Source of the DNA: Armatimonadota bacterium
GTDB lineage: Bacteria; Armatimonadota; UBA5829
Assembly (NCBI GenBank): GCA_012522575.1
Contig: JAAYKE010000025.1
Span: 1 to 61,117, forward strand
Reading direction: 5' to 3'
Length of the DNA stretch: 61,117 nt
Below, piece by piece: positions 142 through 57,388 of this stretch. The notes beneath the pieces were generated by a model. The model saw nothing but the letters and a program-made list of their open reading frames with translations. It did no database searches and was not told the DNA's origin. Made by a program: the position numbers and the translations under genes. How positions within the stretch are numbered: the first letter of the stretch is position 1; every line of letters begins with the position of its first letter.

Positions 142-273
142 GTAAATAGCTTACGAATGATGAGGTCTGGAGGTTAGAGGCTGGAAATGGGGTGGCAATA
201 CCTGCTCGAACTTTGGACATCTGACCTCGGACATCGAAAAAAGCAGACTTCTCACTGCGTTCGAAGTGACATA
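142..273 (+). repeat. Modular intergenic repeat element, copy 1 (terminus + heptamer arm A + heptamer block B + REP-like hairpin C)
   Basis: Shares AGCTTACGAATGATGAG, GAGGTTAGAGG, GCTCGAACTT(T/C)GGACATCTGACCTCGGACATCGAAAAAAGC and a variant of AGATTTCTCACTTCGTTCGAAATGACA with the copies at about 14.6, 23.0, 56.0 and 57.1 kb. Confidence 0.9.
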
Positions 274-310
274 TCGCCCGACAATGAGAATTGAGAGCCG
301 GATGAGGGCA

Positions 311-319
311 TGGTATAAT
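311..319 (+). promoter_or_regulatory. Extended -10 promoter element (TGGTATAAT)
   Basis: Perfect TGnTATAAT about 48 bp upstream of the SLT gene. The same motif precedes the rhomboid gene and ftsH. Confidence 0.6.
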
Positions 320-366
320 CCACATGCAGATCTTCGGCCCGAAATCGCCGATGGGGTTTTAGTCTA

Positions 367-1335
367 TTGAAATTTCGTTTGTATATTATACTAATTATAG
401 CTCTTATGTTAGTGCAGTTGCCGGGATATGCCGGGGAGCCTGTGAGCGCAAAGGAATATCTGGCGCTGCGCAAGTCGATGATGACTATGCTGCCCATGCA
501 GGAACTCAAGGCTAATCCGGCTTCCTATATCGGTAAGGTTTTTGAGCTGCGAGGCCAACTGATGGGTCATTGCGGAAATACGGTTATTTTGAGCAACGCC
601 GAAGGGGAATCGTATACGCTGACCGCGGATTCGCCGCCCTCTCAGATCGGAGCGCAGCTCGCGTGTCTGGTTAAAATCGGCGATAAATCCACCTGTTCAC
701 TGAGCGACCTTCAACTTGTGGCAAGCGCTTTTCTTATCGATGTGCAGCGTGCAGAACCCAAGCCCAAACCCGCAACCTCCCCTGCCAGCACCAAACCTGA
801 GCCGCAGAACGCTTCCGAGAACAAAACCACTACGCAAATCAACTCCACAGAACTCGTTCGAATATATACGAATGCCGTCAAGCGGTTCAATTCCAAACTG
901 AGCAGCGAGCAGGCCGACACGATAGCCAGAAGCATTTTAGGGTTCAGTTCTCACTATAAAGTAGATCCGAGGCTGGTGTGCGCGGTTATACTGGCGGAGT
1001 CCAATTTTCGAGTAAATGCAACTTCTCGCGCCGGAGCGCAGGGTTTGGGACAGCTTATGCCAAGCACTGCAGCAGGGCTTGGCGTCAACAACGCCTATGA
1101 TCCGGTGCAAAATATATACGGGTCGGTGAGATATGTCAGAAGTATGCTGGATCGAACCTCCGGCAACAAACACTTCAACGAACTCACCGGCAATGACCTT
1201 GCGCTGGCGCTGGCTGCATACAACGCGGGGCCGGGAGCCGTAAAAAAACACGGCGGGATTCCGCCTTACAAGGAGACGAGGAATTACGTGCAGCGGGTAA
1301 CGTCTATCTATAAACAGTTGTGCGGGGTAAAATAA
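367..1335 (+). CDS. Lytic transglycosylase (SLT domain) with signal peptide and N-terminal OB-like region
   Basis: Motifs AVILAESNF (catalytic Glu), GAQGLGQLMPSTA, ALAAYNAGPG and ETRNYV; Pro/Thr linker; hydrophobic N-terminus. Confidence 0.92.
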   Translation: MKFRLYIILIIALMLVQLPGYAGEPVSAKEYLALRKSMMTMLPMQELKANPASYIGKVFELRGQLMGHCGNTVILSNAEGESYTLTADSPPSQIGAQLACLVKIGDKSTCSLSDLQLVASAFLIDVQRAEPKPKPATSPASTKPEPQNASENKTTTQINSTELVRIYTNAVKRFNSKLSSEQADTIARSILGFSSHYKVDPRLVCAVILAESNFRVNATSRAGAQGLGQLMPSTAAGLGVNNAYDPVQNIYGSVRYVRSMLDRTSGNKHFNELTGNDLALALAAYNAGPGAVKKHGGIPPYKETRNYVQRVTSIYKQLCGVK

Positions 1336-1501
1336 GTAGTCCGTCGAAAAGAAATCTCGAAAAAGTATTATACTGACAGGTGACGTTTTCCGGCGTTGCC
1401 GTTTATAAAACGCAGGAGCCGATCTCCGTATTGGCATTTACAGCAAATATGCAGGAAATGCACGACGCGGAGTTCTAACGCTGCGCACAAGAGGGATAAC
1501 T

Positions 1502-2035
1502 ATGAGAACGTGTCTTTGTGCCATTGTATTTTTGATGATTATTTGCCCGGCGGCGATCGCTGCCGAAGAACCTGCTGCGGTTATTCCGCTCTATCCGGGC
1601 GGCGAATCTACCCTGGAGGTCAGCCTTGCCAATGAGGACCTGCTGCCGACGCTGAAGGCTGTTCTGCCAATGCTGAAAGGCGGGGGGATAGCGGACAAAC
1701 TGAACCCGGATGACCTCGAACCGATCCTTAGAAATGTCAGGCTGGTCGAGGTAACGCAGGTCGAGATCAAAAATAATGACACCGATTCGAAAATCGCCGA
1801 CTTCTACACCAAAAATGCGCCTGCAGGCGAATGGAGCCAGGTTTTTCGAAACACCACACAGAGCGGCGGCACTATAGGACTTTTTATCCAGAGTGGCGGA
1901 GAAAAGTTCTACGCATTCAGGATTCAGCCGACCAAGGACAACGGCAAAGCCATCCGCAAGGTGACGACCGTACGGCTTGAGGGAAAGATCGACTTTGCGA
2001 AGGCTCTGGCGACTGCGGCCAAGCTGATGCTCTGA
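1502..2035 (+). CDS. Exported hypothetical protein
   Basis: ATG with GAGGGA SD, signal peptide ending AIA-A, first gene of a tightly packed operon. Confidence 0.75.
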   Translation: MRTCLCAIVFLMIICPAAIAAEEPAAVIPLYPGGESTLEVSLANEDLLPTLKAVLPMLKGGGIADKLNPDDLEPILRNVRLVEVTQVEIKNNDTDSKIADFYTKNAPAGEWSQVFRNTTQSGGTIGLFIQSGGEKFYAFRIQPTKDNGKAIRKVTTVRLEGKIDFAKALATAAKLML

Positions 2036-2038
2036 TAA

Positions 2039-2440
2039 ATGAAAAAGGGCGTCTATCAACTCCTGATAAGACTCGATTCGGATACTACCATCCCCGTGGG
2101 AAAGCTCGGCGTTTTTGACTTTTCCCGGGGATATTATGTATATACGGGCAGCGCGATGGGTGGGTTGGAGGCTCGCATTGCCCGACACCTGTCCGCTGAG
2201 AAACGTTGCCACTGGCATATCGATTATCTACTTGAGCAAAGCGCGATTATACGATATGCTATAATGGAATGCCCGACTGGTGAATTGTGCACGGAATGTG
2301 CTGTAAACGCGGCGACGCTTGACATGGACGGCGCAGTGGAGCCGGTTAAAGGCTTTGGGTCCAGTGATTGCAAATGTCGCACTCATCTGGTTTATTTTGC
2401 AAGCGAGCCGGCATTGGCATTGGACGGTATCCCGCCGTAA
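2039..2440 (+). CDS. DUF123-family GIY-YIG (Uri) nuclease
   Basis: Motifs KGVYQLLI, GYYVYTGSA, RIARHL, HWHIDYLL and GFGSSDCKCRTHL. Confidence 0.88.
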   Translation: MKKGVYQLLIRLDSDTTIPVGKLGVFDFSRGYYVYTGSAMGGLEARIARHLSAEKRCHWHIDYLLEQSAIIRYAIMECPTGELCTECAVNAATLDMDGAVEPVKGFGSSDCKCRTHLVYFASEPALALDGIPP

Positions 2441-2478
2441 AGACCTTATGCCGGTATGACGTTCCGAGGAAGGCACGT

Positions 2479-3222
2479 ATGCAAGTCGAAGACAGCCCCT
2501 ATAAGGTCACCCTGGGAGTTTTCGAGGGTCCTCTCGATCTGCTTCTGCACCTCATCCGCTCCAACGAAATCGACATCTACGATATTCCGATAGCGGAGGT
2601 TACTGAGCAGTATTTGTCGTATTTATCTCTGATGGAGTCGCTCGACCTTGAGGTTGCCGGCGAGTGGCTGGTTATGGCGGCGACGCTGCTTGAGATTAAA
2701 AGCCGTATGCTGCTGCCGGATGACCCGAAGGAAGAACTCGAAGAAGAGGCTGTCGATCCGCGCGTGGAGCTTGTCGAGCGACTGATCGAATATGAGAAGT
2801 TCAAGGGCGCGGCGGAGGTCTTTCGGGAGCGGGAAGCCGAACAGGCGAAGGTGTTTGGCAGGGGTGCGGTCGAGTTGGATTATGACCTTCGACCGGAGTT
2901 CGATCTATCGAATATAACTGCGGTCGATCTGCTGGCCGCGCTTCAGCGCATATTGTCCGATATTGATGAGGAACCTGTCACCAGCATCCAGCGTCGCAAA
3001 GTCAGCGTTCGGATGCGGATGCGGGAGATTTATAAAAGAGCCATCGATGCGGCAGGGCAACTGCACTTCGTTGATTTGTTTGACGATGTGACGAGCCGGG
3101 TGGAGGTGGTCATTACCTTTCTCGCGTTGCTGGAACTGTTGAGGCAGAAAAAGTTGACTGTGAAGCAGGCAAAGGCGTTCGCGCCTATTGAAATTAAACT
3201 CGTGGAGCAGAATGGAAGCTAG
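2479..3222 (+). CDS. scpA: Segregation and condensation protein A
   Basis: Motifs FEGPLDLLLHLI, IDIYDIPI, LVMAATLLEIKSRMLLP and TFLALLEL. Start placed at ATG 2479 after a GAGGAAGG SD. Confidence 0.95.
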   Translation: MQVEDSPYKVTLGVFEGPLDLLLHLIRSNEIDIYDIPIAEVTEQYLSYLSLMESLDLEVAGEWLVMAATLLEIKSRMLLPDDPKEELEEEAVDPRVELVERLIEYEKFKGAAEVFREREAEQAKVFGRGAVELDYDLRPEFDLSNITAVDLLAALQRILSDIDEEPVTSIQRRKVSVRMRMREIYKRAIDAAGQLHFVDLFDDVTSRVEVVITFLALLELLRQKKLTVKQAKAFAPIEIKLVEQNGS

Positions 3223-3958
3223 AGATAACATATTGGAAGACGGATGCGAAATAGTCTCGGCACAGCCCGTCTCGGAAGCATCGGTGGAGGAGATCGCTGA
3301 GGCTGCCTGCGGGGTGGCGCTCGCAAGGGAATCTCTGCAAGAGGCCCCGGCGCATCGAAACGGCAAACTGAGGCACGTCGTGGAATGTATGCTGTTCGTT
3401 TCTGCCGAGCCTATGAGCGCGGATCAAATTGCCCAGACCCTCGAAGTCGAACCGGAACGTGTGGAAGACGCTCTGTCGGTCCTGGAAGAGGACCTCAACT
3501 GCGGTCATGGGCTGCAGTTGTTGAGAGTGGCCGGGGGATATCAGATTTGCACGAGGCCGGAGTTTGGGGAATACTGCGCCTTGATATTGCAGCCGGCGAA
3601 GAGAAAGCTCTCCAAAGCCGCGCTGGAAACCCTGGCTGTTGTGGCATATCGACAGCCCTGCACTATACCTGAGGTGGAAGCGGTGCGCGGAGTCGATGTT
3701 GGCGGGGTGATGAAAACGCTTATGGAACGCAGGCTGATTAACGAAGCCGGGCGCAAACAGGCTCCGGGAAGGCCGGTTCTGTATACTACCACGCAGGAGT
3801 TTTTAGAGTATTTCGGCCTGAATGATGTTTCCGAACTGCCGGATATCGATATGCTTGCGGTGGAGGCGGTGAAGGCCCTCGAGGCGCAAAAGGACTTGTT
3901 CAGCGAGGATGCTGCGCAGGACGACGAGACAGGCGTCGATGAGGAAGTCGGCAAATAA
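3212..3958 (+). CDS. scpB: Segregation and condensation protein B
   Basis: Motifs VECMLFVS, VAGGYQICT, LSKAALETLAVVAYRQP and GRPVLYTTTQEFLEYFGL; follows scpA. Confidence 0.95.
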   Translation: MEARDNILEDGCEIVSAQPVSEASVEEIAEAACGVALARESLQEAPAHRNGKLRHVVECMLFVSAEPMSADQIAQTLEVEPERVEDALSVLEEDLNCGHGLQLLRVAGGYQICTRPEFGEYCALILQPAKRKLSKAALETLAVVAYRQPCTIPEVEAVRGVDVGGVMKTLMERRLINEAGRKQAPGRPVLYTTTQEFLEYFGLNDVSELPDIDMLAVEAVKALEAQKDLFSEDAAQDDETGVDEEVGK

Positions 3959-4013
3959 TTCCGGGATGGATGCAGAATCCCGCGAATTTTGGTTATGCTT
4001 TAGTTGATATGCG

Positions 4014-5327
4014 TTGTTGCTCCTTCGGAATACCCTCAACAGACAACTTTGCGATTTGATGAAATTGGTTTTTATGAATATGTCGATTGCGCGAAGCCTG
4101 TGCCTGACAAACCGGGCCTTATTGATTATAGTATCGTTTTATGCGGTGATGATGATAACATCGGCGGCGGCTGCCAACGCCCCTGATATTGATGCGCTGG
4201 GCGCGGTGTTGATGGATTTGGACACGGGTCGGGCGCTGTATGAAAAGAACCCGCACCAGAGGCTGCCCAACGCCAGTACCACCAAAATTATGACCGCTAT
4301 TCTGCTTATCGAGCATTGCGAGATGACCGATTCCATCGAGGCAAGCCAACACGCCTGCGCAACGCCTTATACGTCACTTCACCTTATGCCCGGGGAGACT
4401 ATCAACGCGAAGGACTTGTTGACGGGCATGCTGGTGCGCTCAGCTAATGACGCATCGGTGGCGGCGGCAGAGCATATTGCGGGGTCTACGGAAAATTTTG
4501 CAAAGGCGATGAACGCCAAAGCGATTAGTCTCGGCTGCACGGATACGAATTTTGTTACGCCCAACGGGCTGCACGATCCCGATCATTATTCATCGGCTTA
4601 TGACCTGTGCCTGATAACCCGCTATGCGCTGCGCTATAAGGAGTTCAACGAGGCAGTTAACACGCGCAAGTATCTGCTAAACAGCCGGTCGATGAATAAA
4701 GAGGATTTGTGTGTGTTCGCTAATAGCAAGTTTTTGCGGAGTTATCCCGGCGCGGACGGGGTAAAATCGGGTTATACCAGGCAATCGCGCAAGTGTTATG
4801 TGGGAAGCGTGACTCGTGACGGATGGAGGCTGATTTCCGCGGTGCTGGGCAGTTCGAACGCGAATGTCGATACCGCAGCCCTTATGAATTATGGATTTGC
4901 AAACTTCGAACAGGTCAGGGTTGTAGGAAAAAATCAGAAGTGCGGGGATGCTGCGGTGACGGGGGGACGCCGTGCTACGGTTCCTGCGCTGGCGGTTAAA
5001 GAGTTGAGGGTTCCGGTGGCAAAAAATGGGAGCAAAGTGACTACTCGCCTGGAATTTGCGGATATTGAAGCTCCCATCGCCAGGGACGCGAATGTCGGCA
5101 GGATTGTGGCGATGGTGGATGGGCAGCAGGTTGCATTCGCCGAATTGAAGGCTGGCGAAGAGATGGGAATAAGTTTGTGGAGACGGGCGCGCACTTTGCT
5201 TAAAGGATGCGGCATGGTGGTGGCGCTTGTGATTGCAGGTAGATATGGAAGACAGATTGCAAAAAATTCTCGCCGCCGCAGGCGTCGGATCGCGTCGCCA
5301 CTGCGAAACTATAATCGCCGCCGGTAG
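4014..5327 (+). CDS. D-alanyl-D-alanine carboxypeptidase (peptidase S11, PBP5-like); exact start uncertain
   Basis: SxxK (ASTTKIMT), SxN (SAND), a KSG variant of KTG, TPNGL; C-terminal hydrophobic segment and Arg-rich tail. Confidence 0.92.
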   Translation: MLLLRNTLNRQLCDLMKLVFMNMSIARSLCLTNRALLIIVSFYAVMMITSAAAANAPDIDALGAVLMDLDTGRALYEKNPHQRLPNASTTKIMTAILLIEHCEMTDSIEASQHACATPYTSLHLMPGETINAKDLLTGMLVRSANDASVAAAEHIAGSTENFAKAMNAKAISLGCTDTNFVTPNGLHDPDHYSSAYDLCLITRYALRYKEFNEAVNTRKYLLNSRSMNKEDLCVFANSKFLRSYPGADGVKSGYTRQSRKCYVGSVTRDGWRLISAVLGSSNANVDTAALMNYGFANFEQVRVVGKNQKCGDAAVTGGRRATVPALAVKELRVPVAKNGSKVTTRLEFADIEAPIARDANVGRIVAMVDGQQVAFAELKAGEEMGISLWRRARTLLKGCGMVVALVIAGRYGRQIAKNSRRRRRRIASPLRNYNRRR

Positions 5328-6069
5328 AGTTGCAGTAAACGATGTGGTCGTCACTGAGCTTGGCACAAAAGCGGACCCGCAAAGAGATACGATCACTCTT
5401 GACGGCAAGCCTATAGGCTCGGCGGCTGAAAAAACGTATATTGTGCTTAATAAACCGCCCGGATATACGTCCACTCGATCTGATCCGCACGCGGAAAAGA
5501 CGGTGATGGAGCTTGTGAGCGGCATTGGCGGGTATCTGTATCCGGTAGGCCGCCTCGATGTCGACTCCGGCGGGCTTTTGATTATGACAAACGACGGGGA
5601 GTTCACAAAACTGGTGAGCCATCCTTCTCATGAGGTCGAAAAGACCTATGTTGCGGTGATCAAGGGCAGAATAAAGTCGGTGGATTTGGATGCGCTGGAA
5701 CAGGGGATAGAATTGGACGATGGGATGACTGCTCCGGCGCGCGTGAGGCTGATATCATCGTCGCCCAGAAATGGTACAAGCACGGTCGAGATGACGATAC
5801 ATGAAGGACGAAAGCGACAGGTGCGGCGGATGTTTGCGGCGGTCGGACATAAAGTCGAAAAACTGACGCGCACCAGGATCGGAAGGCTCGATCTGAAAGG
5901 TCTGCGTGAGGGGGAGTATCGCCGACTCACCAGACGTGAAATAGCTGAACTGCGCGAAAGCACGCGAAATAGAAAACGCGAAAGCTCGAAAAAGCAGATT
6001 TCTCGCTCTGCTCAAAGCGACGGGAACGTTAAAAGCCGTCGGTCGTCATCGCCCAAGTCGCAGCCCTGA
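5245..6069 (+). CDS. rluB: 23S rRNA pseudouridine synthase (RluB/RsuA family)
   Basis: S4 domain RLQKILAAAGVGSRR, NKPPG, catalytic GRLD, EGRKRQVRRM; conserved position after scpAB. Confidence 0.92.
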   Translation: MEDRLQKILAAAGVGSRRHCETIIAAGRVAVNDVVVTELGTKADPQRDTITLDGKPIGSAAEKTYIVLNKPPGYTSTRSDPHAEKTVMELVSGIGGYLYPVGRLDVDSGGLLIMTNDGEFTKLVSHPSHEVEKTYVAVIKGRIKSVDLDALEQGIELDDGMTAPARVRLISSSPRNGTSTVEMTIHEGRKRQVRRMFAAVGHKVEKLTRTRIGRLDLKGLREGEYRRLTRREIAELRESTRNRKRESSKKQISRSAQSDGNVKSRRSSSPKSQP

Positions 6070-6087
6070 ACGTTTGACCAATAGCAG

Positions 6088-6948
6088 ATGAAAAAACTTG
6101 TATGTCTGATAATTATAGCCCTTTGCCTGACGAGCGGAGCTTGTTTGGGCGATTATCCCGTGCGCGTTAAGGATGCGCGGGGAAAATCGGTGTTGATAAA
6201 AACCAAGCCGATGAGGATAGTATCGCTTGCGCCGGGCAATACGGAGATGCTCTACGCGATCGGGCTGACGAACCGAATCGTCGGGGTGACGCGCTATTGT
6301 GACTATCCTGCTGCGGCCAAGCAGAAGCCCAAGGTTGGGGATATGACGGTCGATATAGAAACGGTCGTCTCCCTCAAGCCTGACCTAGTTTTTGCGCACT
6401 CTGCTCTCAATTCGACTGCGATCCCGAAGCTGGAGAAACTCGGCCTGACCGTATTTGCCATCGATCCTAAAAGCCTCGCGCAGGTAGCCGACGATATTCG
6501 AACCCTTGGCAAAATTGCTGCTCGACCTAAAACAGCCGACCTTGCAGCGAGCAAAATGGAGTCCGCCATAAAAACCGTAAAAGCCGATTCCGCAAAAAAG
6601 CCCGCTCGTCGGGTGCTGGTCGTGGTGCAGTCCAGCCCGCTGTGGTCTGCAGGGCCGGGGACTTTTGTCGATGAGATGCTGAAGACCATCAGCGCGACCA
6701 ATGTGGCTTACGACGCCAAGCCGGGGTTCGTGCCATTTTCGAGGGAGTTGGCGATATCGCGGAACCCGGATGTGATAATCAGCGGCCATCAACCCGATAT
6801 CGCGTTTTTTAACAGAAGCCCTGAATGGAAAACTACCGGCGCAGTCAAAAACAAGCGCGTTTATGTCATCGACAGCGATATTATTATGCGCGCCGGCCCC
6901 AGGCTCGCGGATGGGCTGAAGGAAATGGCGCGCAAGGTTGACGGTTAA
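6088..6948 (+). CDS. Cobalamin/iron-chelate ABC transporter substrate-binding protein (BtuF-like)
   Basis: Motifs RIVSLAPGNTEMLYAIG, VGVTRYCDYP and AVKNKRVY..RAGPR; signal peptide. Confidence 0.88.
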   Translation: MKKLVCLIIIALCLTSGACLGDYPVRVKDARGKSVLIKTKPMRIVSLAPGNTEMLYAIGLTNRIVGVTRYCDYPAAAKQKPKVGDMTVDIETVVSLKPDLVFAHSALNSTAIPKLEKLGLTVFAIDPKSLAQVADDIRTLGKIAARPKTADLAASKMESAIKTVKADSAKKPARRVLVVVQSSPLWSAGPGTFVDEMLKTISATNVAYDAKPGFVPFSRELAISRNPDVIISGHQPDIAFFNRSPEWKTTGAVKNKRVYVIDSDIIMRAGPRLADGLKEMARKVDG

Positions 6949-6949
6949 A

Positions 6950-6973
6950 GGGAGCGATTCGCAGACCGCTCCC
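6950..6973. terminator. GC-rich hairpin between convergent genes (REP-like)
   Basis: GGGAGCG-N10-CGCTCCC immediately after the btuF-like stop; similar to the hairpin at 23143-23168. Confidence 0.5.
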
Positions 6974-7018
6974 GTCCTGATTCTATTCGCCGGTTAATGT
7001 TATCCCGCTGCAGGCAGC

Positions 7019-9229
7019 TCAGGCGATTGATTTGACCGCCTCGATGATATCCTCCACCGTCGGCACGCACGCGTCCTCCAGCGGCTCGCTCATCGGAATC
7101 GGACAGTCCTTTCCGCTGAGCATAACCGGCTGGGCGTCGAGGTAGTCGAATCCGGTTGCGCCATCCTCGAATTGATACTCCATCAACTGCCGCGTGATCT
7201 CCGCGCCGACTCCGCATCTCGGGTAGCCTTCGGATACCGTGACCAACCTGCCGGTCTTGCGAACCGATTTGGCTATTGTGCCGATATCGAGCGGATTGAG
7301 GGTCCTGGGGTCGATGACTTCGACGTGAATACCCTCTTTTGCAAGCTCATCAGCCGCGGCCATCGCGAAGTGCAGCATTCTGCAGTAGGCGACAATGGTC
7401 ACATCGGTGCCGGTTTTTTTAATATCTGCTACTCCGAGCGGGATGATGTAGTCATCGTCCGGAACCGGCCCTGTGACTCCGGAGTACAGCACCTTATGTT
7501 CAATGAACAAAACCGGGTTATCATCACGAATGGCCGCCTTCAAAAGGCCCTTCGCATCATAAGGAGTTGCGGGCATGACGATATATATCCCCGGAATATG
7601 CAGGAACATCGCCTCGAGGCTCTCTGAGTGGTGGGCGGCGATCGATCGCCCTACTCCGCCTTCGGTGCGCACAACTGCCGGGACCCTGGTCTTTCCGCCA
7701 AACATATATCGGTTGTAGCCGAGGTTGTGTATAAGCTGGTCTGATGAGATGGTGAGGAAGTCGATATACATAATCTCCGCAATCGGCCTGATTCCTCTCA
7801 TTGCGGCTCCGCCCGCGGCTCCAACTATGGCAGCTTCGCTGATGGCGGTGTCTATGACCCTTGCCGCCCCGAACTCGTCATAAAGGCCCCTTGTGGCGGC
7901 ATAAGCTCCTCCGTAAAGCCCGACGTCTTCGCCCATTATGATTACGCTTTCATCGCGCTTCATCTCCTCGCGCTGAGCGTCGACAATCGCCTGGCCGTAG
8001 GATTTGATCGGCACGCCGTGTTTCTCTTCGACTGCCTTGATCTCCGAAGCCTTGAGCTTGGGCAGCGGCCCTGAAGCGATTGCGCGAACCTCGGCCTCGA
8101 TCTGCTGGATTTTGGGCAGCACGACGGCCTCTGCCTTGATGTCCAATGCCAGTTTCACCTCATCGACGGGCACATAAACATCGTTGTAAAGCTCGCTTAC
8201 ATCCGGATATGGGCTGTCCATGCCGAATTTGGTGGCGTTTTCTATAGTTTTGGCCGCCTTTGCCTCTGCTTCATCAAGCTCCGCCTGAGTTGCGCCGAAA
8301 TCTTTGAGCAGCCTTTTGCCGAGCACGGTAATCGGGTCTCGCTCTTTCCATTCCGACTCCTCTTCGCGTGTGCGATAAACGCGCTGGTCACTTGAGGAGT
8401 GGCCATACCAGCGGTAGGTTTTGCACTCCACCAGGGTCGGCCCATCGCCACTCCTCGCCCTGTCGATCGCCTCGCGAACTGTTTTCTTGACCTCCACAAC
8501 ATCCATCCCGTCGCAAATCGCACCGGGAATGCCATAGCTGGAGGCGCGTTCGGCGATATCGGCGATTCTGGAGGCCTGTCCGGCGCAGAGGTTGGATCTC
8601 TCGTGGAAAGGAACGCTCATGCCATAGAGGTTGTTTTCGCATATATAGACAATGGGAAGCCCGCACAGCAGGGTAGCTCCCATATTCAGCGCCTCATGGA
8701 AGCTGCCGGTGTTTGTGGCTCCGTCGCCGAAGTAGCACAACACCACTGCGCCGGTTCCTTTGAGTTTTTCCGCGAGGGCTGCTCCTGTTCCGATGGGAAT
8801 ATTGCCGCCCACGATTCCGGTGGAGCCGAGGCTGCCTTTTTCGACATCTGCGATATGCATCGAGCCGCCGCGTCCCTTGCAATATCCGGTGGCCTTGCCC
8901 ATAAGCTCGGCCATCATTTTGTTCCAGTGATCCTGCCGGGCGGCTTCATCGGCGGCGTGCTTATTGCCCATAGCTCCGCAGTGACCGTGGCCCCGGTGGG
9001 TCGATGCGATAACGTCGCGGTCCTCGAGTTCTGAAACGGAGCCAACTGCTACGGCTTCCTGGCCTGCGTAGAGATGCGACGCGCCCTTGATTGTCCCGTC
9101 GCGCAGGAGTTTGTAGACAGTGTCCTCAAAAATACGAATCTCATGCATCTGGCGCAGATAGTCGAGCATCTCGGCTTTTGAAACTGACAGTTTATCAGGT
9201 GCAGATTTGGCAGCAGCTTTCTTCGGCAT
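7019..9229 (-). CDS. Fused 2-oxoacid/acetoin dehydrogenase E1 alpha+beta subunits (ThDP-dependent)
   Basis: Alpha half: HLYAGQEA, THRGHGH, GRGGSMH, GDGATN...ENN, TYRWYGHS. Beta half: GEDVGLYGG, DTAISEAAIVG, HHSES, EVIDPRTLNPLD. Confidence 0.93.
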   Translation of the reverse strand: MPKKAAAKSAPDKLSVSKAEMLDYLRQMHEIRIFEDTVYKLLRDGTIKGASHLYAGQEAVAVGSVSELEDRDVIASTHRGHGHCGAMGNKHAADEAARQDHWNKMMAELMGKATGYCKGRGGSMHIADVEKGSLGSTGIVGGNIPIGTGAALAEKLKGTGAVVLCYFGDGATNTGSFHEALNMGATLLCGLPIVYICENNLYGMSVPFHERSNLCAGQASRIADIAERASSYGIPGAICDGMDVVEVKKTVREAIDRARSGDGPTLVECKTYRWYGHSSSDQRVYRTREEESEWKERDPITVLGKRLLKDFGATQAELDEAEAKAAKTIENATKFGMDSPYPDVSELYNDVYVPVDEVKLALDIKAEAVVLPKIQQIEAEVRAIASGPLPKLKASEIKAVEEKHGVPIKSYGQAIVDAQREEMKRDESVIIMGEDVGLYGGAYAATRGLYDEFGAARVIDTAISEAAIVGAAGGAAMRGIRPIAEIMYIDFLTISSDQLIHNLGYNRYMFGGKTRVPAVVRTEGGVGRSIAAHHSESLEAMFLHIPGIYIVMPATPYDAKGLLKAAIRDDNPVLFIEHKVLYSGVTGPVPDDDYIIPLGVADIKKTGTDVTIVAYCRMLHFAMAAADELAKEGIHVEVIDPRTLNPLDIGTIAKSVRKTGRLVTVSEGYPRCGVGAEITRQLMEYQFEDGATGFDYLDAQPVMLSGKDCPIPMSEPLEDACVPTVEDIIEAVKSIA

Positions 9230-14560: not shown

Positions 14561-14845
14561 GTAACAGCACACAAATGATGAGATCTAGAGGTTGGAGGTT
14601 AGAAGTTAGAGGTTAGAAAAGCAGTACGATGGGAGGTGATCTCCGAATCGCCGTTTCCTTCTACATGGCACAACCCCTCGCGATGCCGGCTCGAACTTCG
14701 GACATCTGACCTCGGACATCGAAAAAAGCAGATTTCTCACTTCGTTCGAAATGACATGGGTTGACGTTCGAAATGACAAGAGTTGTGTGGCTGGGACAGA
14801 GAGGCCAGCCACTTCAACCACTCACGAAGAGTAAGCAATTCACAA
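14561..14845 (+). repeat. Modular intergenic repeat element, copy 2 (both termini present)
   Basis: GTAACAGCACACAAATGATGAG, AGAGGTT-type array, block B, hairpin C with a partial duplicate, and right end CTCACGAAGAGTAAGC shared with copy 5. Confidence 0.9.
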
Positions 14846-22990: not shown

Positions 22991-23140
22991 GCGATACAAG
23001 CTCGAACTTCGGACATCTGACCTCGGACATCGAAAAAAGCAGATTTCTTCGTTCGAAATGACAAAAGCGGCGCAATCCCATTCCCAACCTCTAACCTCTA
23101 ACTTCTAACCTCCAGACCGACCTCGGACATCGAAAAAAGC
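22991..23140 (+). repeat. Modular intergenic repeat element, copy 3 (B + C + inverted arm A + partial B)
   Basis: GCTCGAACTTCGGACATCTGACCTCGGACATCGAAAAAAGCAGATTTC, then CCAACCTCTAACCTCTAACTTCTAACCTCCAGACC. Confidence 0.9.
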
Positions 23141-38717: not shown

Positions 38718-38793
38718 TGCCGACTAGCTCAACTGGCAGAGCGTCTGACTCTGGATCAGAAGGTTCTAGGTTCAAGCCCTAGGTCGGCAGCCA
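38718..38793 (+). tRNA. tRNA-Gln (anticodon CTG)
   Basis: Acceptor stem TGCCGAC/GTCGGCA, G73, encoded CCA; D arm GCTC/GAGC; anticodon arm TCTGA-CTCTGGA-TCAGA; T arm CTAGG-TTCAAGC-CCTAG. Confidence 0.97.
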
Positions 38794-48659: not shown

Positions 48660-48683
48660 GCAATAATCGTCGAAGGAGACAAT

Positions 48684-50429: not shown

Positions 50430-51752
50430 ATGCCCAAGAAAATTACTTTTCTGGGAGCCGGCAGTTTCGGCTTCACAAGAGGACTTGTAAGAGATATATT
50501 GACATTTCCCGCTCTGGCAGACGCTGAACTGGTGTTGATGGATATCGATGAGGAGCGACTCGACTTCATCAAGACCGCAGTCGACAAGATCGTTGCGGCG
50601 GGCAACTATCCTGCTAAAGTCACCGCCACCACCAACCGTCAGGAGGCCCTTGAAGGCGCGGACGGCGTCGTGATTACGATATTGCAGGGCGGCCCGGAGG
50701 TGTTCAGGACCGATATCGAAATCCCCATGAAATACGGCGTGGATACGAACGTCGGCGATACCCGCTCGGTATCCGGGTTCTTTCGCGCATGTCGCACAAT
50801 CCCTGTAATGCTGGAGTTCGCCGCCGACATCGAACGGCTCTGTCCTCACGCGATAGTGCTCAACTATACAAACCCGATGGCGATGCTGTGCCGAGCGATG
50901 CTGGGCTATGCCGATATCCAGGTATCGGGTCTGTGCCACAGCGTTCAGGGCACGGCGAATATGCTTGCCAGTTGGATCGGCGCATCGATGGATGATATCA
51001 CTTATATGTGCGCTGGCATCAATCACCAGGCGTGGTATCTCGACTTCAAGTGGAAGGGCAAGGACGCCTATCCGCAGATCAGGGAAGCCATCACCACCAG
51101 AGAGGATATATATAAACACGAACTGGTTAGAAACGAGATGTATCTGCATCTCAACTACTACGTCACCGAATCCAGCGGACACAACTCCGAATACGTCGCG
51201 TGGTTCCGCAAGAGGCCGGAGCTTATCGAGAAGTATTGCACTCATGGCACCGGATGGAACCCTGGGGCTTATGCCTATATTCTCAACGAATATCTGGCAG
51301 TGGCGGCGACCTGGAGACAAAATATCAAGGCGGAACTGGAAAAACCGGTCAACCTCAACCGAGGCCATGAATATGCGGCCAGCATATTCAACGCGACGAT
51401 CGGCGACGGGGCGTTGTATGAGTTCAACGGCAATGTGCGCAACTTCGGCCTCATTGACAACCTGCCGGAGGGCTGCTGCGTTGAAGTGCCGGTTATGGCG
51501 TCCAAACGCGGCCTGAATCCGATGCACGTCGGCCCGCTGCCTCCGCAGCTTGCTCTGCTCAACAATATCAGCGCTCGATGCGAGGAGATGGTCGTTGATG
51601 CGTGTCTGACCGGGGATAAGGACCTCGTATATCAGGCGTGCTACTTCGATCCGCTTACTTCGGCTGTTTTGAGCCTGGGCGAAATCAAATCGATGGTCGA
51701 TGAGATGTTCGAGGCAAACCGCGACTGGCTGCCTCAGTTCAACTCAAAATAA
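50430..51752 (+). CDS. melA: NAD-dependent alpha-galactosidase, GH4
   Basis: [37 protein letters not shown] and [11 protein letters not shown]. Confidence 0.92.
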
Positions 51753-51764
51753 ATTCTGCATACT

Positions 51765-51795
51765 GCTGCGGCGGGGATCGAAGAACCGCCGCAGC
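51765..51795 (+). terminator. Stem-loop after melA
   Basis: GCTGCGGCGG-N11-CCGCCGCAGC with a weak U-tract. Confidence 0.55.
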
Positions 51796-51840
51796 GGATT
51801 ATTATCCCGTTGCAAACCAATAATGAAAGGCCACTAAAAA

Positions 51841-53067
51841 ATGACCAGGGCGGTAGTATGCGCGATTCTCATTTTATGTTTGGGGGTGACCTGCATGGCG
51901 GGCGAAGTCTCGATTCGTATGATTGGCGGACAGGCCGATAACGCCGCAATCGAAATTCACGGAGTCGGAGCCGGCGATTTCGATGCTAAATTGTGGCGCG
52001 CAGGCACTCTTAATATAGTCCCGGACTCCAGATTGCCGCTGATTGCGCCTCGGCTGGGCGGGATTCAACGAAACATTTATGCGCCTGCAATTGTCGATCT
52101 CGGCGACAGTTGGCGGGTGTTTTTTGGCGGATGGGATGGCGTAGACAACGGCAAGGATCGCATCTACTCCCTTACAACCGGTAATTTTCTGGATTTTGAA
52201 AATCGACAGACGGTCATTGAGCACGGAGTCTTTGTTCATGTGTGCAATGTAAGCGCGCTGCGGCTGCCGGATAAGTCCTTTAAGCTGATGTGCACTGCAT
52301 ATCCCGACCCCGATGGCCTGAACAAGCCGGTGACATTCACCAGCCCCGATGGCAATATCTGGAACGGAACCCGCGCTCCCTATGAGCCAAAGTTTTCCGA
52401 TATTATCAAGATAGACGGCTATGATAAGTTCGCCACGGCGGATATTAACGGCATGAACGTCATCCTCTACGAGGACGGCGTCTACAGGCTGTATTTTAAT
52501 AATTTCAAGGACTTCGGCAAGGTTTTCAGGGCCACTTCGACCGATGGCAAGACATTTAAGTATGATAATGTCGCGGTGGAATTCTCTGCGTGCGTTATCG
52601 ATGTCAAAAAGTTCGGAACAGCGGCAGATCCGATCTATTTGATGGGGTTGCACATGAATAGGGACACGCTATGGTATAGCCTTTCCGCCGATGGTCTGAA
52701 GTTTGATGCGCCGAAGGAACTAGTCAAAAACCTTGGCGATGCGGACCGCTATATCGTCGCCATTGGCTGGGTTGTGCGGGATAACAGGCTGCTGGGGTTC
52801 CTGTATGGAGCCAGCGACACGGGACATTTGAACCGCAACCGCATTTTCGGCAGGTGGCTGCAAAAGAAAGTAGTCTTTGTCGCCTCGGATGGCTCTCGAT
52901 TTGAGCCTGCCGCCGCGCTTGGCCCGGATCGCCAGATTATAAACATACCCGGCGACAAAGAACTTGACGGAACCTTTGAGATATTCGCCGAAGATGGCGT
53001 CACTTTGCTGGGCAGGATAGCCGGAAAAGCCACTCCGACTGCGGTTTATGTGGTCGAGGAAAAATAG
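51841..53067 (+). CDS. Exported beta-propeller glycoside hydrolase-like protein
   Basis: Signal peptide, NIYAPAIV, repeated Asp-box-like SxDG segments. Confidence 0.65.
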   Translation: MTRAVVCAILILCLGVTCMAGEVSIRMIGGQADNAAIEIHGVGAGDFDAKLWRAGTLNIVPDSRLPLIAPRLGGIQRNIYAPAIVDLGDSWRVFFGGWDGVDNGKDRIYSLTTGNFLDFENRQTVIEHGVFVHVCNVSALRLPDKSFKLMCTAYPDPDGLNKPVTFTSPDGNIWNGTRAPYEPKFSDIIKIDGYDKFATADINGMNVILYEDGVYRLYFNNFKDFGKVFRATSTDGKTFKYDNVAVEFSACVIDVKKFGTAADPIYLMGLHMNRDTLWYSLSADGLKFDAPKELVKNLGDADRYIVAIGWVVRDNRLLGFLYGASDTGHLNRNRIFGRWLQKKVVFVASDGSRFEPAAALGPDRQIINIPGDKELDGTFEIFAEDGVTLLGRIAGKATPTAVYVVEEK

Positions 53068-53068
53068 A

Positions 53069-54571
53069 TCAACCTTGAGCCTGGAACATAACGCCCGGGT
53101 TCAGCAGCCCGTTTGGATCGAACAGCTTCTTTAGGGCGCGCATTTGAGCGATTGTCCCGTTGCCGTACATCATCTCAAGGAACGGGACTTTCAGTCTGCC
53201 GATGCCGTGCTCTGCTGAAACCGACCCGCCCATCTTCACGACCTTGTCCGCCCAGCCAAGATAGAGTTCCCTGCCTATGGAATACTGATCCATATCGTGG
53301 GGCAGTATATTGACGTGGACGTGGTTGTTGCCGATATGGCCGAATATGACGGACTCCAGCCCGCGCTCACTCAGTCCCGCGTTATACATTGCAAGCGCGT
53401 CTGCAAGGCAGTCGTCCGGCACGGACATATCCGTTCCCAGCTTGGTCAGCTCCGGAACATCTCGCTTGCGCTCCCCTATGAGAAGATTGACGGCCTCCGG
53501 GGTAGCGTGACGAAATGCCTTTATCGGCTCAAGTTCCCTGTCGGTAGTCGCAAACCAGGTATCCTCATCGCTGCCGCCAAGTTCCATGACCGTTTCGATC
53601 AACTCCATCGCCGCTTCCTCTATCGCATCGGCATCCGGTGCATGGAATTCGACATATATGGCGGTGTGATATTGATCTTTCAGAGCGGGAATGGCCTCAA
53701 ATGCAGGGTTTGTCGCTTTGGCGTTTCGCAGTAGATCCAACGCATCGTGATTGAAAAATTCTATGGCGACCAGCGCTGCTTCCGATTCGGCAAACATCGA
53801 TCGCGCCGCATTTACAAGCTCGATTGCCGCCTGCTCGCTTGGCAGAAAGATTGTAAGGCCGTTGATAGCCGCTGGCCGCGGAGTCAAGCGCAGCCCTGTT
53901 TCGGTGATGATTCCGAGGGTTCCTTCGGAGCCGATCAGCAGGTCGATTAGATCCATATCGTCCGCCGCATAATAACCCGCAGCGGATTTGACATCAGGCA
54001 TTGTATAGTCGGGCAGTTGGCCGGAAATAGTTCTGCCGGATTCGGTGGTGAGGGAAAATGACCGTCCCTTGGAAAAGTTCTCCGCCCGTTTTATGCTGAT
54101 TACATCGCCATCGGATAAAACCATCCGCAGGCTCTGCACCCAACTGCGCATCGCGCCATAATAAAAAGACATGGCTCCCGATGCATTGCAAGCGGCCATG
54201 CCGCCGATAGATGCGGAGGTTTCTGTGGGATCGGGGCCGAAAAACAGTCCGACAGGCTCGATAATATCCCTCAGATCGCACAGCAGCGCGCCCGGCTGCA
54301 CAACGACGCCATCTGCAGTCGGCTCGCCTATGGCGTTCATCGACCTGAGATTTATTATTAAACCGCCTTCGGGGACGGCTCCGGCGACGATGCCCGTGCG
54401 CGCGCCCTGAGTAATCAGCTTGAGGCCGCGCTCATTGGCGTAGCGTACGGCTTCGATAACCTCGGCCTCGGTGGTCGGAAAGGTGATTGCATCCGCCGTG
54501 CCTGTGCGCTTGGACTCATCGCTGAGAAACTCTTGGAAGTCGGTGTTGAATGGACTGATTTGAACTGTCAT
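53069..54571 (-). CDS. FAD-linked oxidase (GlcD/D-lactate dehydrogenase family)
   Basis: QGARTGIVAGAVP, PDPTETSASIGG, GSEGTLGII, FGHIGNNHVH, SAEHGIG and DPNGLLNPG. Confidence 0.92.
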   Translation of the reverse strand: MTVQISPFNTDFQEFLSDESKRTGTADAITFPTTEAEVIEAVRYANERGLKLITQGARTGIVAGAVPEGGLIINLRSMNAIGEPTADGVVVQPGALLCDLRDIIEPVGLFFGPDPTETSASIGGMAACNASGAMSFYYGAMRSWVQSLRMVLSDGDVISIKRAENFSKGRSFSLTTESGRTISGQLPDYTMPDVKSAAGYYAADDMDLIDLLIGSEGTLGIITETGLRLTPRPAAINGLTIFLPSEQAAIELVNAARSMFAESEAALVAIEFFNHDALDLLRNAKATNPAFEAIPALKDQYHTAIYVEFHAPDADAIEEAAMELIETVMELGGSDEDTWFATTDRELEPIKAFRHATPEAVNLLIGERKRDVPELTKLGTDMSVPDDCLADALAMYNAGLSERGLESVIFGHIGNNHVHVNILPHDMDQYSIGRELYLGWADKVVKMGGSVSAEHGIGRLKVPFLEMMYGNGTIAQMRALKKLFDPNGLLNPGVMFQAQG

Positions 54572-54729
54572 AGTGATAGAACACTTCCGCATACTTTTCT
54601 CCTTTTCCTTCATAGAAGCGATACATGCGGCGCGGCAGCTTTTATGAACTTTAAGAATATGCTCACGCGGCAATGGAGGCCGCGATTCCACATGGTATAA
54701 TCTATCATCGAAGGCTCTGGGCGAAATCT

Positions 54730-55929
54730 ATGTCCGAAACAAAACAAACGACACTTGCAACGAATATGGCAAACTGGCCGCTGCTGACCCTTGGCATCAT
54801 CGGCCTAAACGTGCTCGTCTACCTGTCTATCTTTCGCGAGTCTACTCCGGGCTATCCGGACATCAACCCAACTCGGCTGTATGGACTCGTCCCCGCGCAT
54901 CTGAAGGTCGGCAAGATGCTGACCTCAAACTTTGTGCACGCCAGCGCCGGCCATCTGTTGGTGAATATGACTATGCTCTATATTTTCGGTCGCAATGTGG
55001 AGCGGTCGATGGGCAAACTGGAATATGGGTTGATATATATCGGTGCGTGCTTCGCCTCGTCAATAATGCATGCGGCGATGGTTTTGGCGGCGTTTCCGGT
55101 GTATTACAGCGAGCAGCCTGTGATTGGAGCATCGGGGGCGGTGGCAGGCGTGGTGGCGATTTATGCGGTGCGCTATCATCGCAAAGTGTTCGATATTTTC
55201 GGGCTGTATATCCCCGCCCTGTGGGTCATTGCCGCCTGGCTCATCATGCAACTCGCGTTTGCCATAGTGGGACTTTACAAGGACAGCTTTTGGGGGATGG
55301 GACTTAAACAGGTCAGTTACTGGAGCCATCTGGGAGGATTTAGCTTTGGGCTGCTTGTTGCGCTGGCCGGAAATATGGCCTTGCACGGCGAACGGGAGCA
55401 TCTGATCGACGAGGCCCGTCGGCTGTATGACAACGGCAGCATCCTTGAAGCGACTCAGCGATATGAGGCCCTTATAAAATGCGATCCGGATAACGCCTTT
55501 GCGCACGCCGAGTTGGGCCGGTTTTGGGCTATATTGGAGGAAGAGGAGCAGTCGCTGCCATATTATCACAGGGCGATCGAATGGTATCTGTCGCAGGGTC
55601 GGGAGGCGGAAGCGCTGGCCTGCGCGGATGAGATGAAACGATTCTGGCCCAAAGCCGCTATATCAGCTTCCACCCGCTTCAGGTTTGCCTCGTATCTCGA
55701 AGAATCCGGCCACACTCAAAAGGCAATTCGCGCACTGCGCAGGTTGGCAGAGGATGTGCCTGACAGCGTGGAGGCAGAGATGGCCCTGCTCAAAATAGGC
55801 CAACTCCTGCTCAGTTTCGAGCGCGACCCGTCTGCCGCCATCTCAACAATAGAGGGCTTTCTTACGCGCTATCCCGACAGCGAATGGAAACAGTTTGCTG
55901 AAGAGGTTATAAGAAAAGCGCAAGCTTAA
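54730..55929 (+). CDS. Rhomboid intramembrane serine protease with C-terminal TPR domain
   Basis: FVHAS..HL..N, GASG (Ser), YWSHLGG (His); TPR helices; TGGTATAAT at 54693-54701. Confidence 0.9.
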   Translation: MSETKQTTLATNMANWPLLTLGIIGLNVLVYLSIFRESTPGYPDINPTRLYGLVPAHLKVGKMLTSNFVHASAGHLLVNMTMLYIFGRNVERSMGKLEYGLIYIGACFASSIMHAAMVLAAFPVYYSEQPVIGASGAVAGVVAIYAVRYHRKVFDIFGLYIPALWVIAAWLIMQLAFAIVGLYKDSFWGMGLKQVSYWSHLGGFSFGLLVALAGNMALHGEREHLIDEARRLYDNGSILEATQRYEALIKCDPDNAFAHAELGRFWAILEEEEQSLPYYHRAIEWYLSQGREAEALACADEMKRFWPKAAISASTRFRFASYLEESGHTQKAIRALRRLAEDVPDSVEAEMALLKIGQLLLSFERDPSAAISTIEGFLTRYPDSEWKQFAEEVIRKAQA

Positions 55930-55937
55930 CGAGGCTC

Positions 55938-56089
55938 GGAAATGGGAAGGGAAAAGCAGATTCCTCGGCATTCGCCTCGGAATGACGAAAATTGGAGGCT
56001 ACGCATAACCCTCTCAATAACTCTTCTAACCTCTAACTTCCAACTTCTAACCTCTAGACCTCTAGACCTAATCATTCGTGAGCTGTCAC
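55938..56089 (+). repeat. Modular intergenic repeat element, copy 4 (variant hairpin C + inverted arm A + inverted terminus)
   Basis: GAAAAGCAGATTCCTCGGCATTCGCCTCGGAATGAC ... CTTCTAACCTCTAACTTCCAACTTCTAACCTCTAGACC...ATCATTCGTGAGCTGTCAC. Confidence 0.88.
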
Positions 56090-56114
56090 GATTTTCGGCT
56101 TACCATTTATCTCC

Positions 56115-57035
56115 TTATGGTTTTTCGGGACCCTCGACGCCAAGGTTCTTTCGGAAGAAGTCCAGCACCATCTGCTTGATCTGTTTGTAGGTCGGATCAC
56201 TGACAGGGTAATTAATGAAGCCGTGACCGGCGTTTTTGACTTTTACAAAAGTTACATCAACGCCGACTCTTTTGAGCGCATTGTAGAACACTTCGCTTTG
56301 ATACATTGGCACGAGCGTGTCATTGTCGCCCTGAAAAATGAGCGTGGGAGGATCGTCCTTGGAGACGAACTCCACCGGGCTTGCCATCCTTGCCAGCCCG
56401 CGCTTTTGCTGATATGTCCCTCCCAGCAGCGCGGTAACCATATCAATGACCTCCGGCATAGTGTATTGCTTCATCGCCGTCTCGGAGAAGTCTGTTGGGC
56501 CGAACATATCGCAAACTGCCTGCACTCGGCTGGAATATTCCAGATTGCCTGAGTCTCCTTCCAGCAGGCTTATATCCGCGGTCGTCCCAAGCAAGGCGAC
56601 CAGGTGGCCTCCTGCCGACCCGCCCCATACGCCGATGCGGTCCGGGTCGATGCCGTATTTAGCGGCGTTGGCGCGCAGAAATCTAATGGCGGCTTTGCAG
56701 TCCTGTATTTGAGCAGGATATGGAGCTTCCTGACTGAGTCGATATGTGATGCTGCCGGTCACAAAGCCCTGTCCGTTGAGGCCATATTCCTCGGTGAGGT
56801 CGGCGTTGTGGTCGCCCATGCACCATCCCCCGCCGTGAACGTGGATGATAGCAGGAAACCTCTTTTGCGGTGCGCCGGGAGGGAGTGTGAGGTTCATAAG
56901 CAGCTTGCGCTGTCCTATCCGGGCGAACTCGATATCTTTTATCACAGTGGATTTTTCGGCCTGTGCCAGCGATGCCATCGAAGTCAATAAAACAAGCACA
57001 ATTGCGACAATCCAGATCACTGTAACCCTCTCCAT
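56115..57035 (-). CDS. Exported alpha/beta hydrolase (esterase, HSL-like)
   Basis: HGGGW, GGSAGG nucleophile elbow, GDND, AGHGF. Confidence 0.92.
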   Translation of the reverse strand: MERVTVIWIVAIVLVLLTSMASLAQAEKSTVIKDIEFARIGQRKLLMNLTLPPGAPQKRFPAIIHVHGGGWCMGDHNADLTEEYGLNGQGFVTGSITYRLSQEAPYPAQIQDCKAAIRFLRANAAKYGIDPDRIGVWGGSAGGHLVALLGTTADISLLEGDSGNLEYSSRVQAVCDMFGPTDFSETAMKQYTMPEVIDMVTALLGGTYQQKRGLARMASPVEFVSKDDPPTLIFQGDNDTLVPMYQSEVFYNALKRVGVDVTFVKVKNAGHGFINYPVSDPTYKQIKQMVLDFFRKNLGVEGPEKP

Positions 57036-57068
57036 AATCCCTCCGGAAGATTATTTACCGCCAGAAAT

Positions 57069-57388
57069 TTAACAGCTTACGAATGATGAGCACACCTGCC
57101 CGCAGTGTCCGATCTCCGTCTCGGACAAGGCCGGGACAGAGGCCATTTAGAGGTTAGAGGTTAGAGGTTAGAGGTTAGAAGTTGGAGATTGGAAATGGGG
57201 TGGCCATACCGGCTCGAACTTCGAACATCTGACCTCGAACTTCGGACATCGGACATCTGACCTCGAACATCGGACATCTGACCTCGAACTTCGGACATCG
57301 AAAAAAGCAAATTTCTCACCTCGTTCGAATGACATAGTTTGTGTGGCTCAGCCACTACAATCACTCACGAAGAGTGAGTTGTCACGAA
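57069..57388 (+). repeat. Modular intergenic repeat element, copy 5 (longest; expanded heptamer arrays, both termini)
   Basis: AACAGCTTACGAATGATGAG; (TTAGAGG)x4 at 57147-57174; 12 CKRACHT heptamers at 57215-57298; hairpin C; right end CTCACGAAGAGTGAGTTGTCAC. Confidence 0.92.

Follow-up and report, generated by a model that had tools for sequence, protein, structure and literature searches.

The window studied here, contig JAAYKE010000025.1 of the assembly GCA_012522575.1 (61,117 bp), comes from an Armatimonadota bacterium of the UBA5829 lineage and carries five copies of an intergenic repeat, which an earlier note, made from the DNA letters alone, had described as a mosaic of shufflable modules. 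We find that complete members of this family are bounded by terminal inverted repeats and frequently flanked by 8-bp target duplications, and that both features match insertion sequences (ISs) of the IS66 family in related genomes. We regard the repeat as a miniature inverted-repeat transposable element (MITE) which derives from, and was presumably moved by, an IS66-family element with a single open reading frame (ORF). Very probably the family consists of two layers, namely, the IS66-type MITE and an older cargo of hairpins and heptamer arrays.

The five copies and the parts assigned to them are real, as seen in the sequence and in the module map (Table 1). The source genome (G000) comprises 3,062,105 bases in 189 contigs, with 52.7% G+C, and the window is its contig C162. 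A blastn search of this genome with the five copies returned 1775 matches, which merged into about 240 loci with a modal length of 270–300 bp. When consensus sequences of the subfamilies were added as queries, 243 loci were found, covering 52,922 bp or 1.73% of the genome. This amounts to one locus per 12.6 kb, in agreement with the density of about one per 12 kb estimated from the window. The left terminus (L), with up to two mismatches, is present 82 times, and a reversed-pattern control gave no match. The abundance of the family is far above chance. No curated covariance model of Rfam fits the family, in keeping with the earlier note, which recognised no named family in it: the window at the gathering threshold and four element-bearing loci at E-values of up to 1 matched only tRNAs, apart from one sub-threshold plastid motif that overlies a tRNA. 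The sole match of the window at the gathering threshold is a tRNA gene at 38718–38790.

Element ends and IS66-family insertion sequences

The MITE is about 275–316 bp long and has 12-bp terminal inverted repeats, GTAACAGCTCAC on the left and, read inward, GTAACAACTCAC on the right (R), which agree at 11 of 12 bases and have a further ..TGAG in common. In a first module scan, 35 copies with both termini were found to align end to end, with sharp borders and unrelated flanks, and 19 of them were counted as having perfect 8-bp duplications. A wider scan for 22-base ends with up to five substitutions identified 109 L and 118 R ends, which form 68 complete pairs (spanning 108–529 bp, median about 287 bp) and leave 91 solo ends; at 41 of the latter the element would extend past the end of the contig. 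The 8-bp target duplication is perfect in 33 of the 68 complete pairs and matches at seven of eight positions in 13 more, compared with 0.7% perfect matches between left flanks and shuffled right flanks. A few copies fit duplications of 7 or 9 bp instead. End-bounded copies thus have the hallmarks of elements that a DDE transposase inserts by cut- or copy-and-paste, and the ‘terminus’ and ‘right end’ of the earlier description, although real, are the two terminal inverted repeats of a transposon. By size alone, the element is too small for a transposase gene. Crude gene calls cover 88.8% of the genome; 59 of the 68 complete copies are intergenic, nine share more than 30 bp with a call, and no copy is contained in one. 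The five copies of the window are all located between such calls.

Matching ends are found on autonomous ISs of relatives. PF03050 is matched in 18 out of 41 genomes, which include 40 relatives and the source genome, the latter having no match at threshold. Seven of the 20 PF03050 loci that were fetched display end pairs of the form GTAA[C/G]AG[C/T]TCAC, followed by TGAGTA about six bases on, at a distance of 1,383–1,500 bp, and six of these seven elements are flanked by perfect 8-bp duplications. Each has a single ORF, of 442–459 aa and in one case of 285 aa. Two ORFs that were scanned scored 134 and 143 bits on PF03050, with zf-IS66 sub-threshold, and 244 and 258 bits on NF033517, ‘IS66 family transposase’ (cut-off 180). 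At locus L022 (genome G014), one end is GTAACAGCTCACTTTCGATGAGTAC and agrees with the L end of the MITE at 21 of 25 bases, and one end of L025 has TCTTCGTGAGT in common with the R end. The congener G004 (listed at 5.6 Mb, 60% complete) contains five identical copies of a 1.48-kb IS66-type element, and both of the copies fetched (L016 and L030) have perfect 8-bp duplications. Furthermore, a metagenome scan with an alignment of five relatives' transposases as the query returned 80 loci, 61 of which have such an end pair 1.3–1.7 kb apart; the closest of these ends agree with those of the MITE at 19–20 of 25 bases.

The same borders are known from characterized elements. In the accessible text of its report, ISDge4 of Deinococcus geothermalis, which belongs to the ISBst12 group of the IS66 family, has a single 449-aa ORF, the ends GTGACTACTCAGCA and GTAACTGCTCAGCA and an 8-bp direct repeat (PMC12898284). 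IS66 ends are stated to begin with GTAAGCG, and 8-bp repeats to be made, in the accessible part of another report (PMC11946415). Our repeat resembles the ISBst12 group, as far as ISDge4 is described there, in its ends (GTAAC.GCTCA) and in its 8-bp duplication. Autonomous ISBst12-like relatives carry one ORF of 442–459 aa with a DDE_Tnp_IS66 domain in an element of about 1.4–1.5 kb, whereas the repeat is gene-less, about 290 bp long and has an interior unrelated to the ISs. The single-ORF layout and the end motif point to the ISBst12 group as its probable affiliation. Since the ends and the 8-bp footprint match those of relatives' ISs and of the literature, we file the element as an IS66-derived MITE, and the mobilizing enzyme, previously called unknown, would for the end-bounded copies be the transposase of such a single-ORF element.

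Under this scheme, the MITE may have arisen as a gene-less deletion derivative of a single-ORF IS66-family (ISBst12-group-like) IS, or as a product of end capture. A DDE transposase acting in trans would bind the 12-bp terminal inverted repeats together with about 10 conserved subterminal bases, and each insertion would duplicate 8 bp of the target. A burst in the source species could then have produced at least 68 complete copies and the 91 solo ends.

An 8-bp duplication is not unique to IS66, and a different DDE family making 8–9-bp duplications (IS256, ISL3, IS1595 or IS6 type) might be considered as the mobilizer, all the more as the IS66-type ORFs give weak, sub-threshold Mutator/IS256 matches. 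We regard this as very improbable, because the end sequence itself, beyond the length of the duplication, fits the borders of IS66-family elements in relatives and metagenomes as well as those of ISDge4 in the accessible part of its published description (PMC12898284).

Several observations weigh against the proposed origin. No IS66-family transposase was found in this assembly, which would leave the copies either orphaned by now or served by an IS that failed to assemble, and tblastn of two relatives' transposases against the genome gave a best E-value of 0.001. PF03050 is absent also from G003 and G005, two sister species which hold a few copies of the MITE. No IS with ends identical to those of the MITE was found, the best agreeing at 19–21 of 25 bases. 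A perfect 8-bp duplication is present in only seven of the 53 metagenome IS loci with usable flanks, perhaps because many of these loci are contigs barely exceeding the IS in length. In addition, 22 of the 68 complete copies match at six or fewer of the eight positions, a duplication is visible at none of the five window copies, and at an insertion on contig C112, described below, diverged spacers hide the single-copy target sequence. Finally, the MITE model does not account for the spread of the hairpin and heptamer modules that lack ends.

Several candidates for an autonomous partner in the source genome were rejected. The sole PF03050 match (19.7 bits) is ribosomal protein L20 and not a transposase, none of 25 ‘other’ matches to the 12-base end outside MITEs led to an IS, and no transposase adjoins an exact 12-mer at C23:10884.

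Similarly to the bacterial MITEs Correia/NEMIS, RUP, ERIC, Nezha and MITEPsy1, as these are presented in the accessible portions of two reports (PMC3733652, PMC3189936), the element is short, non-coding, end-bounded and associated with a target duplication. It also shares with them a large number of intergenic copies, strong folding and ends in common with full-size ISs. A subfamily-1 copy folded as single-stranded DNA has a free energy of −52 kcal/mol versus a mean of −33.1 (sd 3.7) for shuffles (z = −5.16), and none of 200 shuffles was as stable. Unlike MITEs which share their ends with an IS of the same genome, the element has ends that match only the ISs of relatives, and its cargo consists of nested hairpin pairs resembling repetitive extragenic palindromes (REPs) and of heptamer microsatellites, both of which exist outside the element too. 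In a limited literature search, we encountered neither a MITE that had been assigned to IS66/ISBst12 nor any report of MITEs from Armatimonadetes.

Hairpin and heptamer cargo

Three fixed subfamilies, with 25, 11 and 10 members, comprise 46 of the 68 complete copies. Their consensus sequences have in common the L terminus and the right two-thirds of the element (F-G-C-H-R), in the same order; the left third alone varies, as D-E, A-X or D-A-X. Mean pairwise identity within the three subfamilies is about 89%, with maxima of 96.6–97.5%. D and H are hairpins of one design which face each other; their 8-nt loops are similar, and the GTAG tag of each is left unpaired. Hairpins F and C, with TGTC tags, likewise stand head to head, separated by a conserved spacer (G) of about 60 bp. 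This makes the element a nested palindrome, with the ends outside, followed by the GTAG pair and then by the TGTC pair, and heptamer arrays A, B and G adjoin the hairpins. The other 22 complete copies, among them copy 5 of the window, are atypical; they keep the L-to-R order and have units repeated or missing, e.g. L-[D-H]-[D-H]-R or L-D-H-[A-B-C-H]-[A-B-C-H]-R. Arrays have 2–8 units in A (mode 4) and 2–14 in B, and reversed-genome controls give 2-unit chance matches only. Module variation is mostly a matter of three subfamilies and of tandem duplication or loss of units, and to call the modules ‘shufflable’ was an overstatement. The module maps suggest that the mosaic may have four sources: the three fixed subfamilies, slippage in the heptamer arrays, tandem duplication or deletion between repeated modules, and truncation and recombination with end-less clusters.

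The variation could also be attributed to misassembly of a fragmented metagenome bin, given that the genome is in 189 contigs and that a repeat locus is found no more than 150 bp away from 70 of the 378 contig ends. Such an artefact is scarcely credible: the subfamilies have 10–25 members, each with unique flanks and matching duplications, and independent assemblies, among them the one-contig genome G003, contain the same modules.

The tagged hairpins are similar to those of the GTAG- and CGTC-tagged REP super-families and of clusters of the bacterial interspersed mosaic element (BIME) type (Di Nocera et al. 2013, PMC3733652). In the accessible text of that report, CGTC-tagged REPs have a CGTC/TGTC tag, a stem of 8–9 bp starting with A-T, a loop of 4–5 nt and a CCA-like tail. 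Features shared with tagged REPs, as they are described there, are the unpaired GTAG or TGTC tag, the A-T stem base, the 4-nt loop in F, head-to-head dimers, a conserved spacer of 20–100 bp and clusters with tandem reiteration. The earlier comparison of hairpin C with YGTC-tagged REP-like palindromes was apt, as it has a TGTC tag and forms head-to-head pairs, and a BIME-like mosaic does exist. Unlike tagged REPs, the hairpins have two internal stem mismatches (F has a 10-position stem with two mismatches and a 4-nt loop), a CTG tail in place of CCA, and a 3-nt loop in C. Moreover, many units are located inside a DDE-type MITE and are flanked by heptamer arrays, and the REP-associated tyrosine transposase (RAYT) was not found.

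It could be argued that the whole family is a REP/BIME or REPIN system, in which tagged palindromes are spread by RAYT/Y1 or by recombination and the ‘termini’ are just a module. The GTAG tags of D and H, the TGTC tags of F and C, the head-to-head arrangement with a conserved spacer and the A-T stem start are all features of tagged REPs in the accessible text (PMC3733652); end-less clusters and tandem arrays exist; and sister species have about 150 copies of hairpin C and almost no termini. We nevertheless consider this account unlikely. PF01797 (RAYT/Y1), which as a positive control was matched in six of 14 known genomes, has no match in the source genome, G001, G003, G005 or G006, and the ends of the repeat are those which bound autonomous IS66-family elements. 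To our knowledge, REP/RAYT systems do not leave target duplications of the kind seen here, where 46 of the 68 copies bounded by inverted repeats have duplications matching at seven or eight of eight positions. For the end-bounded copies, the REP account is refuted by these duplications.

Heptamer arrays are also known from cassettes of PF05635, a four-helix-bundle 23S rRNA intervening-sequence protein. The family resembles such cassettes in having period-7 arrays, direct or inverted, beside small hairpins; it differs from them in its arm sequences, and there is no such gene between A or B arrays in the genome. The only PF05635 gene of the source genome is divided between contigs C82 and C42, whose ends overlap, and has inverted heptamer arrays on either side (Table 1); it was rejected as the mobilizer because the framing heptamer, of GGTTGTC type, is neither A nor B. 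Two other candidate mobilizers named in the earlier note fared no better: RAYT, as stated above, and GxxExxY (PF13366) were not found in the genome. Relatives carry PF05635 genes in several copies, with up to 14 matches in G004, and inverted period-7 arrays, built from many different heptamers, were detected on both sides of the gene at 13 of 29 loci (L039–L067). One of these resembles arm A (L051 of G026, with AGTTAGG/AAGTTAG arms), and AACCGTC-type arrays abut hairpin C in G003. Such resemblances would fit an origin of the repeats as gene-less shells of heptamer-armed PF05635 cassettes, spread by that protein or by a partner. We find this origin very hard to accept, since no gene framed by A- or B-type arrays was found in the source genome, and it predicts neither the GTAAC... 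inverted repeats nor the 8-bp duplications. In addition, A arrays were examined as possible gene arms at five loci of relatives; an array was found at three, each time alone between ordinary genes.

We return to the two-layer structure, in which the cargo, with the GTAG pair (D, H) enclosing the TGTC pair (F, C) and arrays A, B and G beside them, would predate the MITE. Away from contig edges, the source genome has 42 A matches (out of 114), 19 B matches (out of 67) and 43 C matches (out of 189) that lie more than 400 bp from any terminus. The 33-mer of hairpin C, with up to three mismatches, is present 151 times in G003 and 153 times in G005, and is absent from the congeners G001, G002 and G006. 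MITE ends number one L and one R in G003, and two L and three R in G005. The hairpin and heptamer modules are independent of the MITE, and older. At 20 sampled G003 loci, hairpin C comes after B-type or AACCGTC-type heptamers, and in many cases its right half is then repeated in tandem or more heptamers follow; tandem arrays with periods near 150 bp are also present. Two G003 loci compared with G005 are orthologous sites, one of which differs by one versus two tandem units, and both look like inheritance and slippage. We tentatively raise the possibility, which we hold to be somewhat doubtful, that the modules represent a separate RAYT-free repeat system (three sister species have about 150–190 copies each, and three congeners have none) spreading or persisting by an undescribed mechanism, and that an IS66-type MITE captured a nested set of them, thereby giving TGTC/GTAG-tagged REPs dispersal by a DDE transposase.

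Distribution and orthologous sites

The L end, with up to two mismatches, is found 82 times in the source genome versus 0–5 times in each of 35 other genomes of the order, seven of which have any, and the reversed-pattern control gave no match in any genome. The family is abundant and non-autonomous, as had been proposed, and it expanded in the lineage of the source genome. A search for the exact pattern in 185,579 species, each represented by one genome, yielded only two other records, one of them titled Armatimonadetes bacterium UBA5829; records of the source genome may be missing from the set searched. Short MITEs with the same ends are present in relatives, with perfect 8-bp duplications in G026 (162 bp), G008 (172 bp) and G042 (155 bp) and a 7/8 duplication in G005 (203 bp); the interior of the G026 element consists of two opposed TGTC hairpins. 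These short MITEs imply that the vehicle is old in the order, and its burst took place in the source species. Given the mean identity of about 89% within subfamilies, the burst is not very recent. In G003, the L terminus at L093 (G003:C1:1411511 onward) precedes four or more units in tandem, which are about 100 bp long and consist of a GTAG hairpin D and a hairpin H; here the interior of the MITE is amplified to a minisatellite. At two loci of G009 (L091 and L098), a TGTC hairpin comes after the L-type terminus, and next to it an unrelated sequence of about 115 bp is repeated in tandem.

The C112 copy, which has a perfect duplication, is missing between conserved flanks in the three congeners G003, G005 and G006, and at a C24 site the gap in G006 is 92 bp versus 93 bp expected for absence of the element; the spacers have diverged, so that the target sequence itself is unreadable. 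Three tRNA genes lie just left of the C112 MITE (L076:354-646), in a stretch that is 88–92% identical in congeners versus 68–74% for the flanking genes. The sites of copies 4 and 5 offered no simple comparison of filled and empty states, as G003 and G005 have extra small genes at both. At the copy 5 site (57036–57405 versus L068 and L069), both carry a terminator hairpin and a small minus-strand gene, about 500 bp in length; an additional 768-bp stretch is present in them at the copy 4 site, where G006 has a gap of 100 bp. The copy 3 site appears to be empty in G006, where it measures 90 bp versus 258 bp in the source genome. In G003, the genes flanking copy 3 are 270 kb apart, with a hairpin C about 60–160 bp from each (Table 1). 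These two coordinates suggest that the copy 3 site is an old cluster through which a rearrangement has occurred.

Copies in the window and significance of the family

The five window copies range from a complete element to an end-less cluster (Table 1). The unique segment of copy 2 contains a GGTGATCTCCGAATCGCC hairpin, and a target duplication is not visible at this copy. Arm A had been reported as right-hand and inverted in both copies 3 and 4. This is true of copy 3, whereas in copy 4 everything, not just the arm, is on the opposite strand; inverted A proper is found only in copy 3 among the window copies. The arrangement of copy 3 is seen again at C30:14068-14170, and since the inverted-A junction recurs there, it is a repeated unit and not a private rearrangement. 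A terminator-like GC hairpin follows copy 3. Copy 4, whose L end (56068–56089) has two mismatches, is truncated immediately past the stop codon of the upstream gene. In copy 5, period-7 arrays were detected by TRF; its flanks agree at only two of eight positions, hence there is no target duplication. Just upstream of copy 1, at 73–119, a 24-bp unit with the consensus AAAAAGGGACATAGTCCCTCTGCA is present twice in tandem, and each unit holds a small GGGAC..GTCCC palindrome.

Table 1. Positions and organisation of the repeat copies in the window and of related features in the source genome and in G003
Feature	Position	Strand	Organisation
Copy 1	142..273	+	One-ended MITE fragment, L-A-S-B-C, without hairpin H and R terminus; L 148-164, A 165-186, S 182-202, B 204-240, C 249-273 (module map)
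Copy 2	14561..14845	+	Two-ended decayed MITE, L-A-unique segment-B-C-partial second C (C')-H-decayed R; L 14561-14582 (2 mismatches), A 14584-14618, B 14688-14725, C 14731-14757 and 14765-14778, H 14786-14820, R matched over 14821-14832
Copy 3	22991..23140	.	End-less cluster, B heptamers-hairpin C-inverted A array-B end; B 23000-23036, C 23047-23063, inverted A 23084-23117, B end 23119-23136
Copy 4	55937..56089	-	Left half of subfamily-2-type MITE, L-A-X hairpin-TGTC hairpin F-start of G; reversed: G 55937-55954, F 55954-55986, X 55990-56021, A 56022-56067, L 56071-56086
Copy 5	57069..57388	+	Complete MITE, L-GTAG hairpin D-A array-spacer S-expanded B array-hairpin C-partial H-R; L 57070-57090, D 57095-57131, A 57147-57186, S 57187-57210, B 57211-57304, C 57311-57341, R 57364-57382
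Copy 5, left terminal inverted repeat	57069..57090	+	TTAACAGCTTAC..., 2 mismatches to family consensus
Copy 5, right terminal inverted repeat	57364..57388	-	Minus-strand reading starts GTGACAACTCAC
PF05635 gene	G000 C82:1-360 and C42:1-200 (L010, L011)		Framed by inverted GGTTGTC / AACCGTC heptamer arrays
Regions flanking copy 3 in G003	C1:1002547-1002733 and 733565-733654		Each with a nearby hairpin C

The family is new but of an ordinary kind, a gene-less mobile element; what is new is the family of its mobilizer and the two-layer reading. A likely enzyme family can now be named for a repeat that makes up 1.7% of the genome in an uncultured digester lineage of Armatimonadota. The repeats break the assembly, as seen from the contig ends located at them, and they probably influence how genomes of the group are rearranged, since they are located where the synteny of sister species is interrupted. 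The element is also a clean case of a MITE carrying REP-type hairpin dimers, and as such it bears on how tagged REPs are dispersed without a RAYT. If a RAYT-free repeat system was captured by a MITE, this would be one concrete answer to the published puzzle of CGTC-type REPs that have no dedicated transposase.

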